Notes under the pieces: generated by a model
What the model saw: the letters and a program-made list of their open reading frames with translations, nothing else
Database searches by the model: none
What the model was told of the DNA's origin: nothing
Shown: piece after piece, positions 1-18,348 of the stretch
How positions within the stretch are numbered: the stretch's first letter is position 1
Layout: every line of letters starts with the position of its first letter
Translations under genes and position numbers: made by a program
Origin: Candidatus Izemoplasma sp.
Lineage (GTDB): Bacteria > Bacillota_I > Bacilli_A > Izemoplasmatales > Izemoplasmataceae
NCBI GenBank assembly: GCA_021736285.1
Contig: JAIPGE010000001.1
Span: forward strand, 1-24,666
Direction: 5' to 3'
Length of the DNA stretch: 24,666 nucleotides

Positions 1-925
1 CATTCGGTAACACAACTTTAAATGTTGTTTGTGTATGATTTGCTCCTAACGCAAGCGATGCAAATCGGTAAGCATCAGGAACAACTTTTAATGATTCTTC
101 AGTTGCTCGGATGATAACTGGAAGCAAAATAACCCCAAGTGTCAAACTCCCTGAAATTAAGTTCCCACTTGTTGCGCTGGTGTACCTTACAGTCAAAGGA
201 ACAAATACAGCGAGTCCCATTAATCCAAAGATGATACTTGGAACCCCCGTTAAGACTTCAATCATACTTCTTAACGTATTGGTAAATGGATTCTTACGTG
301 CAAATTCATTTAAATATATTGCGGTAAAGATTCCTATTGGCAGACTAAATAACAAACTCATTCCAATCACATAAAGCGTTGTAATAATAGAACCCCTGAT
401 TCCACCACCTAGTGATGTAAAAACAATTTCACGAAATCCGTCTGAGTTCTCAAGTTCATTAATCATATATTCTGCGCCGTAAATCGGTAATGCAGAATTT
501 TTATCTTCAAATTTAATCGCAGTAACAATATTGCCTTTTTCGATACCAAAACTGTCTGCAGTATCGTTGTTTTTATCATTTAATGTTTGGAACGGTGAGT
601 CTTCAGCAATGAAGACTACTGTAATATTGTTCTTGCCTTCACGGTCTATGCCATCTTCAAATGCAATCCCCCATTTTTCTGAGTAATACGTATCGTCATT
701 TAAACTATCAGGCCGTTCTGTGTTGCTGTAGCTAATTGGTTCATCAATATTCGCATTATAATATTTTGCATGATAATCATTTACGAGCAATCCAAAATCT
801 AATAAATCTGACCCATTACGAAAGACAAAAATAAATATTAATGATAATACAATAACAGCGATTGAAGAGGCAAAAAAAGTAATGCCTTGATATAACCGAT
901 CAACTCGTCTTCTTTTATTTGACAT
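1..925 (-). CDS. pstA: Phosphate ABC transporter permease PstA, partial (C-terminus runs off the left edge), with a ~135-aa extracytoplasmic insert
   Basis: Not in the ORF track because it has no stop in the window. Manual translation from ATG 925 (overlaps the pstC end by 11 nt): MSNKRRRVDRLYQGITFF...GGGIRGSIITTLY...LPIGIFTAIYLNEF...IEVLTGVPSIIFGLMG...LTLGVILLPVIIRATEESLKVVPDAYRFASLALGANHTQTTFKVVLPN. These are PstA-type TM and EAA-loop motifs, and the gene follows pstS-pstC. Confidence 0.93.
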   Translation of the reverse strand, partial: MSNKRRRVDRLYQGITFFASSIAVIVLSLIFIFVFRNGSDLLDFGLLVNDYHAKYYNANIDEPISYSNTERPDSLNDDTYYSEKWGIAFEDGIDREGKNNITVVFIAEDSPFQTLNDKNNDTADSFGIEKGNIVTAIKFEDKNSALPIYGAEYMINELENSDGFREIVFTSLGGGIRGSIITTLYVIGMSLLFSLPIGIFTAIYLNEFARKNPFTNTLRSMIEVLTGVPSIIFGLMGLAVFVPLTVRYTSATSGNLISGSLTLGVILLPVIIRATEESLKVVPDAYRFASLALGANHTQTTFKVVLPN

Positions 926-1880
926 CGACATTACCTACTTTCTTCTTAATAAAATTCAAGGTTAAGTTTGTCAGTAAGATAACGACCATTAACACAATTC
1001 CGACACTAAAGCGAATATCATAATCGATTCCAGTTGTCTCTTTTAATCCTTGTAACATTGTTGATGTTAGTGTTGATGTGATTTGAAAAAAGCCAATTGA
1101 TGGACCACTTCTTGCATTTCCGGCAACAAGTGAAACGGCAGTTGCTTCACCTAATGCTCGGCCAATTCCTAAAATAGCTGCGGTAAATATTCCGGATTTA
1201 GCACTTGTTAATACCACTTTAAAATTGGTTTGCGTTTTTGTTGCTCCAAGCGCAAGTGATCCTAGTACAATGTCTTTATTGACACTTCTAATTGCCACTT
1301 CACTCAGTGCGGTAATTGTTGGTAAAATCATTAATGCTAGCACCAAGACAGTGGCTAAAACACTATTTCCACCTTTTGATTGGACATTGAATATTTTAGC
1401 TAAGTTATAAACAAACGTAAGAATAATGCCACTTCCAAATAATCCATAGACAATTGATGGTATTGAAGCCAACAATTCAATAATTGTTCGTAATACTTCA
1501 GCAATTTTCTTTGGAGCAATACGTGCAATATAAAGCGCAGTTAAGACACCAATTGGTAACGCTACTAAAAGTGATAAGAAAGCAATATATAATGTATTAA
1601 CGATAATAAATCCAACACCATATAGATTAGAAACAAAGGCTGTTCCTTCAAGCCACACGGTGCCTGTTAAAAAACGCCATAAATTAACTGGTCCAACACC
1701 ATCATTATCGGTCACAAAGGGGATTATCCCTTCTGCTGTGACAAAAACAATAATGATTATGATGAACGAGGCACTTATAATCGTAGATAGTAAAAAGAAA
1801 CTCTTGATGAAAAAATCAATTGCATCATTTTTGGTATAAAGATGTAATTTAGATTGTATTTTCTTTATAAATGTCGCCAT
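915..1880 (-). CDS. pstC: Phosphate ABC transporter permease PstC
   Basis: IELLASIPSIVYGLFG, LMILPTI...SEVAIRSV...SLALGAT, GIGRALGEATAV are PstC motifs. RBS AGGAGG at 1888-1893. Confidence 0.95.
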   Translation of the reverse strand: MATFIKKIQSKLHLYTKNDAIDFFIKSFFLLSTIISASFIIIIIVFVTAEGIIPFVTDNDGVGPVNLWRFLTGTVWLEGTAFVSNLYGVGFIIVNTLYIAFLSLLVALPIGVLTALYIARIAPKKIAEVLRTIIELLASIPSIVYGLFGSGIILTFVYNLAKIFNVQSKGGNSVLATVLVLALMILPTITALSEVAIRSVNKDIVLGSLALGATKTQTNFKVVLTSAKSGIFTAAILGIGRALGEATAVSLVAGNARSGPSIGFFQITSTLTSTMLQGLKETTGIDYDIRFSVGIVLMVVILLTNLTLNFIKKKVGNVDVK

Positions 1881-1899
1881 CGGTATTCCTCCTTATATC

Positions 1900-1937
1900 G
1901 CAAGAAAAGCCCCCACATTAGAAGGGCTAGTTCTTGC
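1900..1937 (-). other. Imperfect stem-loop between pstS and pstC (mRNA stabiliser or attenuator)
   Basis: gcaagaa(1900-1906)/ttcttgc(1931-1937) and agccc(1908-1912)/gggct(1924-1928) are complementary. There is no U-tract. Confidence 0.55.
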
Positions 1938-16357: not shown

Positions 16358-16369
16358 GTCATAACCCTC

Positions 16370-17287
16370 CTAGAAGTGGACTCGTCTTTTACTGATTTGC
16401 ATTTGAACTAGTGTGAAAATCATCGTGATACTGAACAAGATGATTGATGCTGCAGCAGCTTCACTCATTTTACCTGTTGCATCTGCATGCGCTAATGCAT
16501 CATACACTAAACCTACAATCGTAATCAACGAATCTTTTGATAGTGTTCCTGGGGGACGTAACGTTTCTCCGAACATCCCGATAATTGTTCGATAAGCTTT
16601 AAAAGCCCCAATAAAGGATGTCACTGTGATGTAAAAAATCATCGGTGACAGGAGTGGAATTGTAATTTTTGTTAAGACACGACGGCGTGGTGTTGCATCA
16701 ACACGCGCAGCATCATAATACTGCTTATCGATACTTTGTAGTCCACTCAAGAAAACCATTATTTTAAAGGCTAGTCCACCCCATATCGTGTATACCAATA
16801 AGGCAAACATCGCGTTGCTCCATGAAGCATTGAGTCCAACCCAGTTAATAGGGTTAATCCCAAACCAACCCAGTATTGTGTTTAATAATCCGTAATCAGC
16901 ATGGAAGATAAACGCAAATGCCATCCCAATCGCAATCGCATTGGTAACGTAAGGTAAGAAAAAAATTGTTTGGAATGCCCCTTGTAATTTTTTGACTGAA
17001 TTTAGTGCCACACTAATTAATAATGCAATAATAACTGAAATAGGGACACTAATAAAGGTAATGATACTCGTATTTTTCATCGCAATACCAAAATCAGGGT
17101 CTGTTATAACGTTTTTAAAATTCCCAAATAAGGTAAATCCTTTGGCACTACGGAGTAAAAATTCATAATCTCTTAAAAAAGCTAAAAAGAATGCATTGAA
17201 TAAAGGATAAAAGGTAAACACACTGAGTAACACCATCGCTGGTGCAAGGTAGAATAAGGCTTTTAAGTTATTCTGTCTTTCAAGCAT
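16370..17287 (-). CDS. CUT1 ABC permease (UgpA/MalF-like)
   Basis: LAPA...FTFYP, NFKNV..DPDF, FFLPYVT, EAA loop LQSIDKQYYDAARVD, ITIPLLSP. Its ATG overlaps the ATPase stop (TAATG). Confidence 0.92.
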   Translation of the reverse strand: MLERQNNLKALFYLAPAMVLLSVFTFYPLFNAFFLAFLRDYEFLLRSAKGFTLFGNFKNVITDPDFGIAMKNTSIITFISVPISVIIALLISVALNSVKKLQGAFQTIFFLPYVTNAIAIGMAFAFIFHADYGLLNTILGWFGINPINWVGLNASWSNAMFALLVYTIWGGLAFKIMVFLSGLQSIDKQYYDAARVDATPRRRVLTKITIPLLSPMIFYITVTSFIGAFKAYRTIIGMFGETLRPPGTLSKDSLITIVGLVYDALAHADATGKMSEAAAASIILFSITMIFTLVQMQISKRRVHF

Positions 17288-18348
17288 TATAGCCGTTCTC
17301 CAGTTTCTCGGTTAAAGACAAATATTTTATCACTCTCAATATTAAACTTTACCTTATCTCCCGGTTTGATACGATGTCTTGCATCAACAATAATTCGATA
17401 TGATTTTGCCGAATCATTAAAGTTCTTAATAATCAATGTTGTATCTCTACCTATTGTCTCTACCATATATACTTCTAATTCCATTATCCCATTTGGATCA
17501 ATTTCAAAGCCTTCAGGACGAATTCCGACAACGACCTCTTGATTTTTAGCGGCTTTTCCAGTTACTTTAGATCCTCGAATCAGCACTTGCTTGTTTTTAA
17601 TTTCTCCAGGCATTAAATTGATTGGTGGTGTTCCTAAGAATTTTGCAACAAATAAATTCTTTGGTTCATCATAAACATCTTGTGGTTCTCCCACTTGTTG
17701 TTTTATTCCAAGATCCATTAAAATTATTTCATCACTAATACTCATTGCTTCTTCTTGATCATGTGTAACAAAGATTGTTGTGATTCCGGTTTCTCTTTGA
17801 ATCCGTTTTATTTCTTCACGTGTTGCTAAACGTAAACGCGCATCTAAGTTACTAAGTGGTTCATCTAATAATAACACTCGAGGCTTTTTAACAAGTGCTC
17901 GTGCTATCGCAACCCGTTGTTGTTGGCCACCTGATAATTGTTTTGGTTTTCGATTCATCAATTCACCGATACCAACCAAATCAGCCATATCTTGTGCCCG
18001 TTTTAATGCTTCTTCTTTTGGCACTTTTATGTTTTCAAGTGGAAACATAATGTTTTGTCTAACTGTCATATGCGGATATAAGGCGTAATTTTGAAACACA
18101 AGCCCAATCCCACGATCTTCTGGGGCCATATCAGTCACATCTTCATCACCAAAATATATGCGACCATGATTCGGTGTTAATAATCCCGCAATCATATACA
18201 GTGTAGTTGATTTCCCACATCCACTTGGTCCTAAAAGGCCAATAAGTTTTCCTGAAGGAATCGTTATATTGAAGTCATTGACAGCAACAGTTTCCGATTT
18301 GTCCTTTGCTTGAAAAATTTTCGTAATTTCCTTGAGTGTAATATCCAT
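17287..18348 (-). CDS. CUT1 ABC ATPase (UgpC/MalK-like)
   Basis: Walker A GPSGCGKST, VFQNYALYPHMTV, signature LSGGQQQRV, Walker B VLLLDEP, VTHDQEEAM, C-terminal regulatory/TOBE region. Confidence 0.95.
   Translation of the reverse strand: MDITLKEITKIFQAKDKSETVAVNDFNITIPSGKLIGLLGPSGCGKSTTLYMIAGLLTPNHGRIYFGDEDVTDMAPEDRGIGLVFQNYALYPHMTVRQNIMFPLENIKVPKEEALKRAQDMADLVGIGELMNRKPKQLSGGQQQRVAIARALVKKPRVLLLDEPLSNLDARLRLATREEIKRIQRETGITTIFVTHDQEEAMSISDEIILMDLGIKQQVGEPQDVYDEPKNLFVAKFLGTPPINLMPGEIKNKQVLIRGSKVTGKAAKNQEVVVGIRPEGFEIDPNGIMELEVYMVETIGRDTTLIIKNFNDSAKSYRIIVDARHRIKPGDKVKFNIESDKIFVFNRETGERL

Follow-up and report, generated by a model that had tools for sequence, protein, structure and literature searches.

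A probable nucleic-acid scavenging locus in an Izemoplasmataceae genome: a promoter motif shared with unlinked nuclease genes and a candidate dinucleotide-type importer

Results

The window (the whole stretch of 24,666 nucleotides that was analysed) is one entire contig of an Izemoplasmataceae metagenome-assembled genome (MAG) from lake water that is 54% complete. It carries 14 co-oriented genes on the minus strand (Table 1); the first-pass annotation had counted thirteen, but its co-orientation stands and every gene that it named is present and intact. The block is not one operon, since terminators and promoters divide it into at least five units. A single promoter and a single strong terminator, both predicted from sequence, delimit a six-gene ABC/nuclease operon, and the PASTA+SNase gene has its own predicted promoter.

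Table 1. Genes and regulatory features of the window, in the direction of transcription.
Feature	Position	Strand	Details
Promoter, ABC/nuclease operon	18377-18413	-	-35 TTCAAA 18413-18408; -10 TATAAT 18391-18386
ABC ATPase, MalK/UgpC type	17287-18348	-	Pfam ABC_tran 3.6e-38; OB_MalK
ABC permease 1	16370-17287	-	BPD_transp_1
ABC permease 2	15473-16357	-	BPD_transp_1
CUT1 lipoprotein substrate-binding protein (SBP)	13991-15433	-	SBP_bac_8 1.4e-39, also SBP_bac_1; lipobox LTGC
SNase+OB surface lipoprotein	12514-13968	-	aBig_2, SNase, DUF5689/OB
1222-aa surface lipoprotein	8826-12494	-	5 x aBig_2, LTD
Intrinsic terminator of six-gene ABC/nuclease operon	8787-8812	-	11-bp stem, then T-run
PASTA+SNase lipoprotein	7592-8728	-	PASTA-like and SNase domains
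Promoter motif TATAAT-G-TA-A-TGTTA, nrnA pair	7528-7542	-	kept at orthologous promoters
NrnA paralog 1 (DHH/DHHA1)	6569-7519	-	real start probably ATG 7510
NrnA paralog 2 (DHH/DHHA1)	5611-6576	-	canonical
Perfect Pho-box-like direct repeat TTAACA-N5-TTAACA, upstream of Na/Pi gene	5564-5580	+	inverted relative to gene; kept in loci L004 and L006
Na/Pi cotransporter with fused PhoU domains	3795-5480	-	
Pho-box-like repeat upstream of regulator gene	3764-3780	+	1 mismatch
OmpR-family response regulator	3046-3720	-	PhoP-like by context only
Perfect Pho-box direct repeat, directly upstream of pstS -35 box	2979-2995	-	kept in loci L002, L006 and L008
PstS lipoprotein	1980-2906	-	circularly permuted
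PstC	915-1880	-	
PstA	2-931	-	cut by contig end

All five surface proteins bear a lipobox, including the two different SNase lipoproteins that had been proposed from the first pass. The SNase+OB protein carries an Ig-like domain at its N terminus and an OB-like tail at its C terminus, a YhcR-like layout, and Asn replaces its Ca-ligand Asp40 ('INTPE'). In the PASTA+SNase enzyme the catalytic set is complete; presence of its gene varies among relatives. Enzymes of the SNase family release 3'-phosphorylated mono-, di- and short oligonucleotides. The 1222-aa lipoprotein consists of five aBig_2 domains, three OB-like segments between the Ig domains and a C-terminal lamin-tail domain, and domain searches detected no nuclease domain in it. 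It is presumed to be a scaffold that holds DNA or RNA, a DNA-holding role of the lamin-tail protein having already been proposed in the supplement of PMC8289736.

The AF2 model of the SBP has a pLDDT of 89. In profile searches the protein scored 141.7 bits to the dinucleotide-binding protein 7c0f versus 112-117 bits to UgpB, and its top Foldseek match was another dinucleotide-binding entry, 7c0v (1.2e-24), UgpB being practically equal at 1.4e-24. This dinucleotide-binding protein, which shares the CUT1 fold, ranks first by both profile and fold, although sequence identity to 7c0f/7c0v is only about 21% and the window protein differs in being a lipoprotein with an N-terminal linker of about 60 residues. 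The protein of 7c0f, presumably from Thermus thermophilus, and its mutants were reportedly described, as the dinucleotide-binding protein of an ABC transporter, by Chandravanshi and colleagues in FEBS J in 2021 (PMID 33599038). Eight residues were mutated by the depositors of 7c0f, their ligand contact being deduced from the PDB titles; five are identical in the SBP (Y56, S127, Y224, Y246, Q274), two are conservatively replaced (F79 by Tyr, T240 by Ser) and one is changed (N81 is Asp). Six of these eight positions are invariant across 34 SBP orthologs. Since the SBP resembles a dinucleotide binder and keeps or conservatively replaces seven of the eight pocket residues, import of di- or oligonucleotides is favoured over that of nucleosides. 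The SBP is likely a di-/oligonucleotide receptor, and its resemblance to a dinucleotide-binding ABC protein backs the earlier suggestion that short nucleotides are imported rather than nucleosides.

Both NrnA paralogs match B. subtilis-type NrnA structures (E 1e-57 to 1e-61) and score 242 and 230 bits against NCBIfam NrnA, below the cut-off of 350. Paralog 2 retains the RxRxR patch; paralog 1 has intact DHH and GGGH motifs and xxxExR in its place, a paralog-specific difference that is conserved across the order. RxRxR contacts the backbone and the 5'-phosphate (PMC9779919), and paralog 1, being without this 5'-phosphate-binding Arg patch, may therefore handle the 5'-OH products of SNase. Complete relatives possess no stand-alone DHH-DHHA1 genes other than these two, so the pair must also perform housekeeping, and its position in the locus does not prove a dedicated role.

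The promoters of the ABC/nuclease operon and of the nrnA pair share a motif, as had been noted before: an identical 16-bp sequence lies at 7528-7543 and 18377-18392. At the ABC/nuclease promoter, TATAAT-G-TA-A-TGTTA (18391-18377) is likewise kept at orthologous promoters. The distinctive part of the consensus, TATAAT-N-TA-N-TGTTA, directly follows the -10 box. In 11 genomes, 27 of 32 strict matches lie upstream, at a distance of 21-45 nt, of genes in six functionally coherent classes, namely the ABC/nuclease operon and the nrnA pair and, on contigs other than that of the locus, genes for a surface 5'-nucleotidase, Endonuclease I, a type I phosphodiesterase and MgtC. Within the window's own genome the over-representation is modest (4 observed, 0.36 expected), and among 105 letter arrangements including the real motif two reach 4. 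Only a subclade within a single family carries the motif; families f2 and f3 lack it.

Only the NaPi, regulator and pstS genes have good Pho boxes. The ABC promoter has no good one, its best site, with 2 mismatches, being at background level, and the motif of the nuclease/ABC and nrnA promoters differs from the Pho box. The link to the phosphate regulon is therefore one of conserved adjacency, as part of the claimed coupling would have it, and not of shared control. The adjoining regulator is of the OmpR type, and its naming as PhoP rests on context, since it falls below every NCBIfam cut-off (PhoB, 214.8 versus 296.2 bits); no histidine kinase gene adjoins it.

Far from being rarely adjacent, the nuclease/ABC and nrnA/pho/pst blocks adjoin each other across the order. 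Of 28 loci of 19-20 kb, drawn from three families, 26 share the gene order, as do 12 Izemoplasmatales MAG loci. The order persists where protein identity is 30-60% and intergenic sequence has diverged. In Anaeroplasmataceae, an ABC-SBP-SNase block is found with an nrnA gene 5-8 kb downstream. The window also shows synteny with loci from two cultured strains, X. coldseepsis zrk13 and H. nucleasis zrk29; its own family, f1, includes a genome (G140) that we take to be zrk13. According to the respective papers, zrk13 degrades DNA (PMC8397711) and zrk29 both DNA and RNA (PMC10470597), growth of each is boosted by added nucleic acid, and locus genes are induced as measured by qRT-PCR. Moreover, Ca. 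Izemoplasma was labelled in 13C-DNA SIP.

Discussion

We consider it probable that the locus is a surface system that scavenges nucleic acid from outside the cell, a type known from earlier work on Izemoplasmatales. Order-wide synteny, induction by DNA or RNA in the two syntenic cultured strains and the resemblance of the SBP all support the earlier reading of a pathway running from capture through cutting, import and trimming to phosphate. DNA or RNA would be retained at the membrane by the lipid-anchored Ig/OB/lamin-tail protein together with the first nuclease's OB tail, and would be cut there by the two lipid-anchored enzymes, which are staphylococcal-type nucleases by family membership. 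The CUT1 importer of the same operon may then bring in dinucleotides or short oligonucleotides rather than nucleosides, a step towards which we lean with some reserve, and the two cytoplasmic paralogs, NrnA by family, would reduce such fragments to mononucleotides. The adjoining Na/Pi-PhoU, regulator and Pst genes would handle phosphate, and they are regulated as a unit of their own through Pho boxes.

A different substrate has been proposed for the importer. From gene neighbourhoods, Wasmund et al. proposed 'probable nucleoside or nucleobase transporters' (PMC8289736), so that in the same layout the ABC system would import what remains once surface nucleotidases have stripped the phosphates. 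Indeed, the motif regulon includes a surface lipoprotein of the 5'-nucleotidase type, and nucleosides are therefore probably also made at the surface. However, 5'-nucleotidases do not remove the 3'-phosphates on SNase products, and nucleoside uptake would leave the conserved cytoplasmic NrnA pair, with its identical promoter motif, without an obvious role. The known nucleoside ABC importers employ BMP/PnrA-type binding proteins, a different family, whereas the SBP is CUT1/UgpB-like and its closest solved relative binds a dinucleotide. We regard nucleoside import as rather unlikely. It is quite improbable that the importer is instead a Ugp-type system for glycerol-3-phosphate or glycerophosphodiesters, with the island devoted to Pho-regulon scavenging of organophosphates and the nucleases only releasing phosphate. 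UgpC and UgpB are the top NCBIfam names, UgpB structures are nearly equal fold matches and Pst, Na/Pi and regulator genes adjoin, but neither name reaches its cut-off (362 versus 432 bits for the ATPase, 97 versus 411 for the SBP), the profile score is about 25-30 bits higher for the dinucleotide binder, the ABC promoter is devoid of a good Pho box, the locus holds no glycerophosphodiesterase gene, and the importer shares one predicted transcript with a nuclease and the presumed nucleic-acid-binding scaffold.

A more sceptical view is that there is no single system, and that independent operons for importer and nucleases, housekeeping NrnA and Pho functions lie side by side in an order that was inherited rather than selected. 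Each unit does have its own promoter and terminator, the cis-elements of the Pho genes differ from those of the nuclease and nrnA units, the genome has no second NrnA pair, and related genomes are non-independent samples. Yet gene order has outlasted the divergence of proteins and intergenic DNA in three families, the nrnA gene still lies near the ABC-SBP-SNase block in Anaeroplasmataceae, unlinked genes for nucleases and a nucleotidase carry the motif that the ABC and nrnA promoters share, and DNA co-induces the locus genes in cultured relatives (PMC8397711, PMC10470597). We find this sceptical view very improbable and retain the reading of a scavenging system.

The locus itself is not new, although the first-pass annotation did not recognise the combination as described: Wasmund et al. 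published it in 2021 (Nat Microbiol) as the "DNA-degradation locus" (PMC8289736, Fig. 6 and supplement; see also PMC8397711, Fig. 4A; PMC10470597, Fig. S7A). Gene set and order agree with those of the window, with an ABC importer and SBP, secreted SNase-type nucleases, a large OB/lamin-tail protein, two DHH 'phosphohydrolases', phosphate transporters and dnaX-ybaB-recR upstream, and the DHH and phosphate-transport genes, like the DNA-holding role, were already presented there (PMC8289736). Differences lie in origin (marine sediment there, lake water here) and in the large protein, which at 1,049 aa has an Endonuclease I domain that the window's 1222-aa protein is without. What is new here is a short promoter motif that links the locus to unlinked nucleic-acid-digesting genes; judged from sequence, the motif-bearing genes look like one regulon under a single regulator, and the locus would be split into two regulatory modules, one with this motif (nuclease/ABC/nrnA) and one with Pho boxes. 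Neither the motif regulon nor the split appears in the available portions of PMC8289736, PMC8397711 or PMC10470597. The evidence also favours a dinucleotide-type transporter over the published nucleoside/nucleobase reading.

Similar arrangements exist beyond the order. In the mycoplasma operons mhp379, MPN133, MG_186, MAG_5040, MHO_0730 and MGA_0676 a surface SNase lipoprotein gene likewise adjoins an ABC transporter, thought to import nucleic-acid precursors (PMC9740415, PMC12115388); the likeness is one of layout. The nuclease gene precedes the ABC genes there and follows them in the window, and the mycoplasma loci are described in the available portions of these papers without the Ig/OB/lamin-tail scaffold, NrnA pair and Pho genes that the window has. 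B. subtilis YhcR, a wall-anchored protein with OB fold, SNase and 5'-nucleotidase, also joins surface OB modules to SNase, and Wasmund's domain search reported a 'YhcR_OBF_like' match in the large protein (PMC8289736). In YhcR the nucleotidase is part of the same protein and anchoring is by sortase, whereas in the window's genome the nucleotidase is a separate lipoprotein on a different contig and the nuclease is anchored by lipid.

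Results

The window corresponds to an entire contig, C5, of a metagenome-assembled genome of 1.06 Mb (completeness 54%), and its sequence is present only in DNA runs of lake-water and sediment metagenomes. All genes between 1 and 21801 lie on the minus strand, with gene calls resting on Pfam, NCBIfam and translations. The first-pass annotation had listed thirteen genes as one nucleic-acid assembly line; its inventory stands except for the count, since 14 genes lie in 1-18348. The six genes from the ABC ATPase to the 1222-aa gene are separated by gaps of 39 nt or less. The PASTA-SNase gene has a -10 box of its own and another is found at the nrnA pair, downstream of nrnA2 there is a hairpin with a T-run, and separate upstream regions precede the Na/Pi gene, the regulator and pstS. 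Given these separate promoters and terminators, the assembly line is no single operon but comprises at least five units.

Features of the locus, genes in order of transcription
Feature	Position	Context	Strand
dnaX, ybaB, recR, then 88-aa ORF	88-aa ORF 18513-18779	start of transcription order, before ABC genes	-
Terminator	18506-18486	behind 88-aa ORF	-
AT-rich palindrome	18419-18430	just upstream of ABC -35 box	-
Near-consensus promoter	18413-18386	ahead of ABC ATPase	-
ABC ATPase (MalK/UgpC type), then two permeases		after 88-aa ORF	-
Lipoprotein substrate-binding protein (SBP), CUT1 type	13991-15433	after permeases	-
Lipoprotein, aBig_2 + SNase + DUF5689/OB tail (OB enzyme)	12514-13968	after SBP	-
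1222-aa lipoprotein, five aBig_2 + C-terminal lamin-tail domain		after OB enzyme	-
Strong terminator	8812-8787	closes six-gene ABC/nuclease run	-
PASTA-like + SNase lipoprotein (PASTA enzyme)	7592-8728	after 1222-aa gene	-
Two DHH/DHHA1 proteins (nrnA1, nrnA2)		after PASTA enzyme	-
TTAACA-N5-TTAACA, 0 mismatches, inverted	5564-5580	upstream of Na/Pi gene	
Na/Pi cotransporter fused to PhoU domains		after DHH/DHHA1 pair	-
TTAACA-N5-TTAACA, 1 mismatch	3764-3780	upstream of regulator	
OmpR-family response regulator		after Na/Pi gene	-
Terminator	3042-3019	behind regulator	-
TTAACA-N5-TTAACA, 0 mismatches	2979-2995	upstream of pstS	
PstS, PstC, PstA	PstS 1980-2906; PstA 2-931	end of order; PstA cut at contig end	-

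Three of these genes deserve a remark. The hydrophobic 88-aa ORF between recR and the ABC operon has no Pfam match and its own terminator, and its C-terminal coding sequence is kept in relatives. PstS shows a circular permutation: its residues 30-167 match profile positions 161-294 (the C-terminal half) and residues 190-305 match positions 7-125 (the N-terminal half), which is not an assembly artefact because relatives align collinearly (e.g. q1-306 in L006, the locus of Ca. Izimoplasma sp. ZiA1). In PstA the first transmembrane segment is followed by a long hydrophilic insert, and the permease domain match starts only at residue 197.

The arrangement is conserved and has been published. A query of public genomes with the SNase+OB protein returned 16 loci. 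The order recR-ABC-SBP-SNase-large protein-(PASTA-SNase)-nrnA1-nrnA2-NaPi-regulator-pstS-pstC is found in 12 metagenome-assembled Izemoplasmatales genomes. Four Anaeroplasmataceae loci retain the ABC-SBP-SNase block wherever the stretch covers it, and three of the four have an nrnA gene 5-8 kb downstream. An SBP homolog is present in 125/158 genomes of the order. Among 40 loci around the SBP taken from three families, 28 extend 19-20 kb, and ABC-SBP-(SNase)-large protein-nrnA1-nrnA2 is retained in 26 of these 28 (11/11 in f1, the window's own family, 14/14 in f2 and 1/3 in f3), with NaPi next in most. The PASTA-SNase gene occurs in part of f1 only and is absent from f2. Thus, the nuclease/ABC block adjoins the nrnA/pho/pst block in relatives too, as the first-pass annotation had expected. 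The window's gene order is also that of L006, of L049 (G140, taken as X. coldseepsis zrk13) and of L073 (G015, taken as H. nucleasis zrk29). Wasmund et al. (2021) describe "conspicuous genomic loci" in Izemoplasmataceae and the family UBA5603 (PMC8289736, Fig. 6) and propose in the supplement that the large protein keeps DNA near the cell while it is digested. Zheng et al. (2021) show the locus in zrk13 (PMC8397711, Fig. 4A), whose culture supernatant degrades DNA, whose growth is stimulated by DNA and whose locus genes are induced up to 20-fold by qRT-PCR, and Zheng et al. (2023) report the same for zrk29, naming NrnA, ABC transporters, RecR and a nucleoid-associated protein (PMC10470597). 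The response to DNA that had been predicted for these genes is therefore already seen in experiments on syntenic loci, and the combination that had not been recognised as described is in print as a "DNA-degradation locus" (PMC8289736, PMC8397711, PMC10470597). The functional reading of the first-pass annotation was largely right, but it rediscovered a published locus; since the locus is already in the literature, this copy by itself adds little. Three points are worth keeping: a promoter-motif regulon, which is new, an argument for a dinucleotide importer, and a divergence between the two NrnA paralogs that is conserved.

One and the same 16-mer, GTATAATGTAATGTTA, stands in the ABC promoter and in that of nrnA, bearing out the shared promoter motifs noted from the window. 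Generalised to TATAAT-N-TA-N-TGTTA (the strict motif), it has four matches in the window's genome, always 31-42 nt upstream of a start codon, ahead of the ABC operon, nrnA1, a Metallophos/5'-nucleotidase lipoprotein gene (C23) and an MgtC-family gene (C49). Four matches compare with 0.36 expected by chance, and two of the 105 letter arrangements tried, the real motif included, reach four. Ten related genomes contribute 28 more strict matches. When the downstream gene was assigned for every match (for two of them from the alignment of locus L051), 27 of the 32 matches in the 11 genomes were found to lie 21-45 nt upstream of six gene classes: the ABC ATPase (nine), nrnA1 (seven), a surface nucleotidase (five), MgtC (three), a type I phosphodiesterase/nucleotide pyrophosphatase (two) and an Endonuclease I lipoprotein (one). 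Conservation does not extend to the motif's flanks, and the pattern had been defined without the nucleotidase, MgtC, phosphodiesterase and Endonuclease I classes. The comparison across genomes gives good evidence of a nucleic-acid-scavenging regulon whose putative operator lies over the -10/+1 region. The motif does not extend beyond a subclade of f1, being missing from f2 and f3. It is informative in its strict form only: the looser TATAAT-N4-TGTTA gives six matches in the window's genome vs 0-10 for control words, and is not enriched in relatives either. A reading of the motif as paired Pho half-sites was discarded, as the spacing is 5 bp, not 11.

Some observations accompany these promoters. 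The motif-bearing genes elsewhere in the window's own genome (G000) encode a nucleotidase-type surface lipoprotein (C23:4712-6241) and a membrane protein of the MgtC family (C49:5642-6115), and the N-terminal linker of the former shares a "C..YPNH..C" motif with the SBP. The palindrome near the ABC -35 box, ATTTTCGAAAAT, or TTTTATAAAA in some relatives, recurs in many genomes of f1; apart from its missing central base it looks like a CodY box, and it may serve as an UP element or second operator.

The Pho module appears to be a separate matter. Zero-mismatch Pho repeats with an 11-bp period occur only at pstS and the Na/Pi gene, where they recur in relatives, and the sole intergenic site with one mismatch is that of the regulator; a second one-mismatch site (12474-12490) falls inside the opening codons of the 1222-aa gene, probably by chance. 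At the promoters of the ABC/nuclease operon and of nrnA, the direct-repeat scan gave no good Pho box. A candidate at the ABC/nuclease promoter (18460-18476) was set aside, having two mismatches, which is background level, and not being conserved in relatives. The regulator scores 214.8 bits against the PhoB profile (cut-off 296.2), and no gene for a partner kinase lies within the window. Of the coupling to the phosphate regulon that had been proposed for the nuclease locus, conserved adjacency survives, but shared control does not, since good Pho boxes are confined to pstS, the Na/Pi gene and the regulator.

Each of the two SNase domains can be aligned with staphylococcal nuclease, and enzymes of this family leave 5'-OH and 3'-phosphate ends. 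The PASTA enzyme, in which the PASTA match itself barely exceeds the Pfam threshold (24.6 vs 23.2 bits), has the full set of Asp21, Arg35, Asp40, Thr41, Glu43 and Arg87. The OB enzyme has five of the six catalytic/Ca-binding residues, the Ca ligand Asp40 being replaced by Asn. As its orthologs read DTPE in 23 cases and NTPE in four (the window's protein and three near relatives), with 18 more missed by the search pattern, this replacement belongs to the window's close relatives. The 1222-aa protein has a well-supported lamin-tail domain (4.4e-15), to which its NCBIfam ExeM match is restricted, and no nuclease domain was detected in it by NCBIfam, PDB or Pfam, the last relaxed to E<=1 for the three segments between the Ig domains. 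Homology to the OB/DUF5689 tail of the OB enzyme is evident in two of these inter-Ig segments (E 6e-8 and 0.003); the third has no significant similarity to that tail and only a weak DUF5666 match. An ESM Atlas search with one inter-Ig segment gave weak OB/DUF5689/DUF5666 leads in the same direction. At the sequence level, this composition supports the earlier proposal that the protein is a non-catalytic OB/Ig/lamin-tail scaffold.

What the importer carries is a question on which the SBP offers some guidance. The published model takes the imported substrate to be nucleosides or nucleobases (PMC8289736). We aligned 34 SBP orthologs and used an AF2 model (pLDDT 89). Foldseek against the PDB ranked first a dinucleotide-binding ABC protein (7c0v, 7c0f and mutants; TM 0.69/0.83), the PDB title of which names endogenously bound uridylyl-3'-5'-phospho-guanosine; this binder is level with UgpB, which binds sn-glycerol-3-phosphate, and above all sugar binders. 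By profile, 7c0f reaches 141.7 bits (E 3e-40) and UgpB 112-117 bits. Residues probed by the depositors were read from the PDB mutant entries, with a ligand-contact role assumed from the PDB titles and the numbering offset set by three substitutions seen in the alignments. They correspond to SBP residues as follows: Y56=Y108, F79=Y131, N81=D133, S127=S187, Y224=Y302, T240=S318, Y246=Y324 and Q274=Q352. Five of these eight presumed contacts are thus identical, two are conservative and one is changed (N81 to D133), and six of the eight positions are invariant across the 34 orthologs. Fold, profile and presumed pocket residues together favour a dinucleotide-like phosphodiester as the ligand, which the first-pass annotation had supposed in arguing for import of short nucleotides, not nucleosides; because identity is only about 21%, we infer such a ligand rather than assign it. 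As to naming the SBP, it falls below the NCBIfam equivalog cut-off for UgpB (97.2 vs 411 bits).

Over their full length, the two paralogs align with B. subtilis-type structures of NrnA, a bifunctional oligoribonuclease and pAp phosphatase (E 1e-57 to 1e-61), at scores under the NCBIfam NF053633 cut-off (241.8 and 229.8 vs 350 bits). Paralog 2 has the DHH, DxD and GGGH motifs and the complete RxRxR patch of DHHA1 (RCRLRSKG), while paralog 1 keeps DHH and GGGH and its patch reads IMVELRSK, i.e. xxxExR. Since orthologs across f1 and f2 show the same split, it is old and maintained. The RxRxR patch touches the backbone and the 5'-phosphate (PMC9779919). As a hypothesis only, a paralog 1 without this patch would fit the 5'-OH/3'-phosphate products of the SNases. 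Complete relatives have only four DHH genes, two long ones and the nrnA pair, so that the pair must also perform housekeeping turnover of nanoRNA and pAp. Regarding the gene models, nrnA1 is listed at 6569-7519 on the minus strand, but its GTG start at 7519 is probably wrong, with an RBS-like GGGGTG ahead of the ATG at 7510 and orthologs beginning at the equivalent Met. In another genome (G141:C1:320343 and 321281; L092, L095) there are two copies of the nrnA1 promoter and first codons, separated by 938 bp and sharing identical flanks; as the upstream one has no long ORF, it resembles a truncated duplication.

Discussion

Extracellular DNA is a major pool of P, N and C in sediments and waters, and the Izemoplasmatales are its best-documented specialist consumers. 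We tentatively entertain, as possible rather than probable, a reading in which phosphorylated nucleic-acid fragments, that is dinucleotides or short oligonucleotides, would cross the membrane through the CUT1 ABC importer and would be finished by two specialised NrnA enzymes, the paralog without the 5'-phosphate-binding Arg patch being adapted to the 5'-OH/3'-phosphate products of the SNases. A putative regulator acting at the conserved -10/+1 site TATAAT-N-TA-N-TGTTA would switch the whole pathway, so that nucleases, importer, NrnA, nucleotidase, phosphodiesterase and MgtC may form a regulon separate from the Pho regulon. Two of these points, if confirmed, would sharpen the published model. 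The general view is that bacteria take up nucleosides and not nucleotides, so that a dedicated di-/oligonucleotide importer would be a little-documented uptake route. The motif, for its part, offers a concrete means of tracking down the regulator and the signal, be it DNA, nucleotides, Mg or phosphate, that switches on DNA foraging.

The 1,049-aa large protein of Wasmund et al. has an Endonuclease I domain, whereas the window's 1222-aa protein is without it. Otherwise the features compared agree: both loci have a large OB and lamin-tail protein, both place secreted or surface nuclease genes beside an ABC transporter and SBP (several in the Wasmund locus, two SNase lipoproteins here), and the adjacent DHH phosphohydrolase and phosphate transporter genes of the former have their counterparts in the two DHH/DHHA1 proteins, NaPi-PhoU and PstSCA of the window. 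In having an SNase lipoprotein gene next to an ABC transporter operon, the window also resembles the SNase-ABC operon of Mycoplasma.
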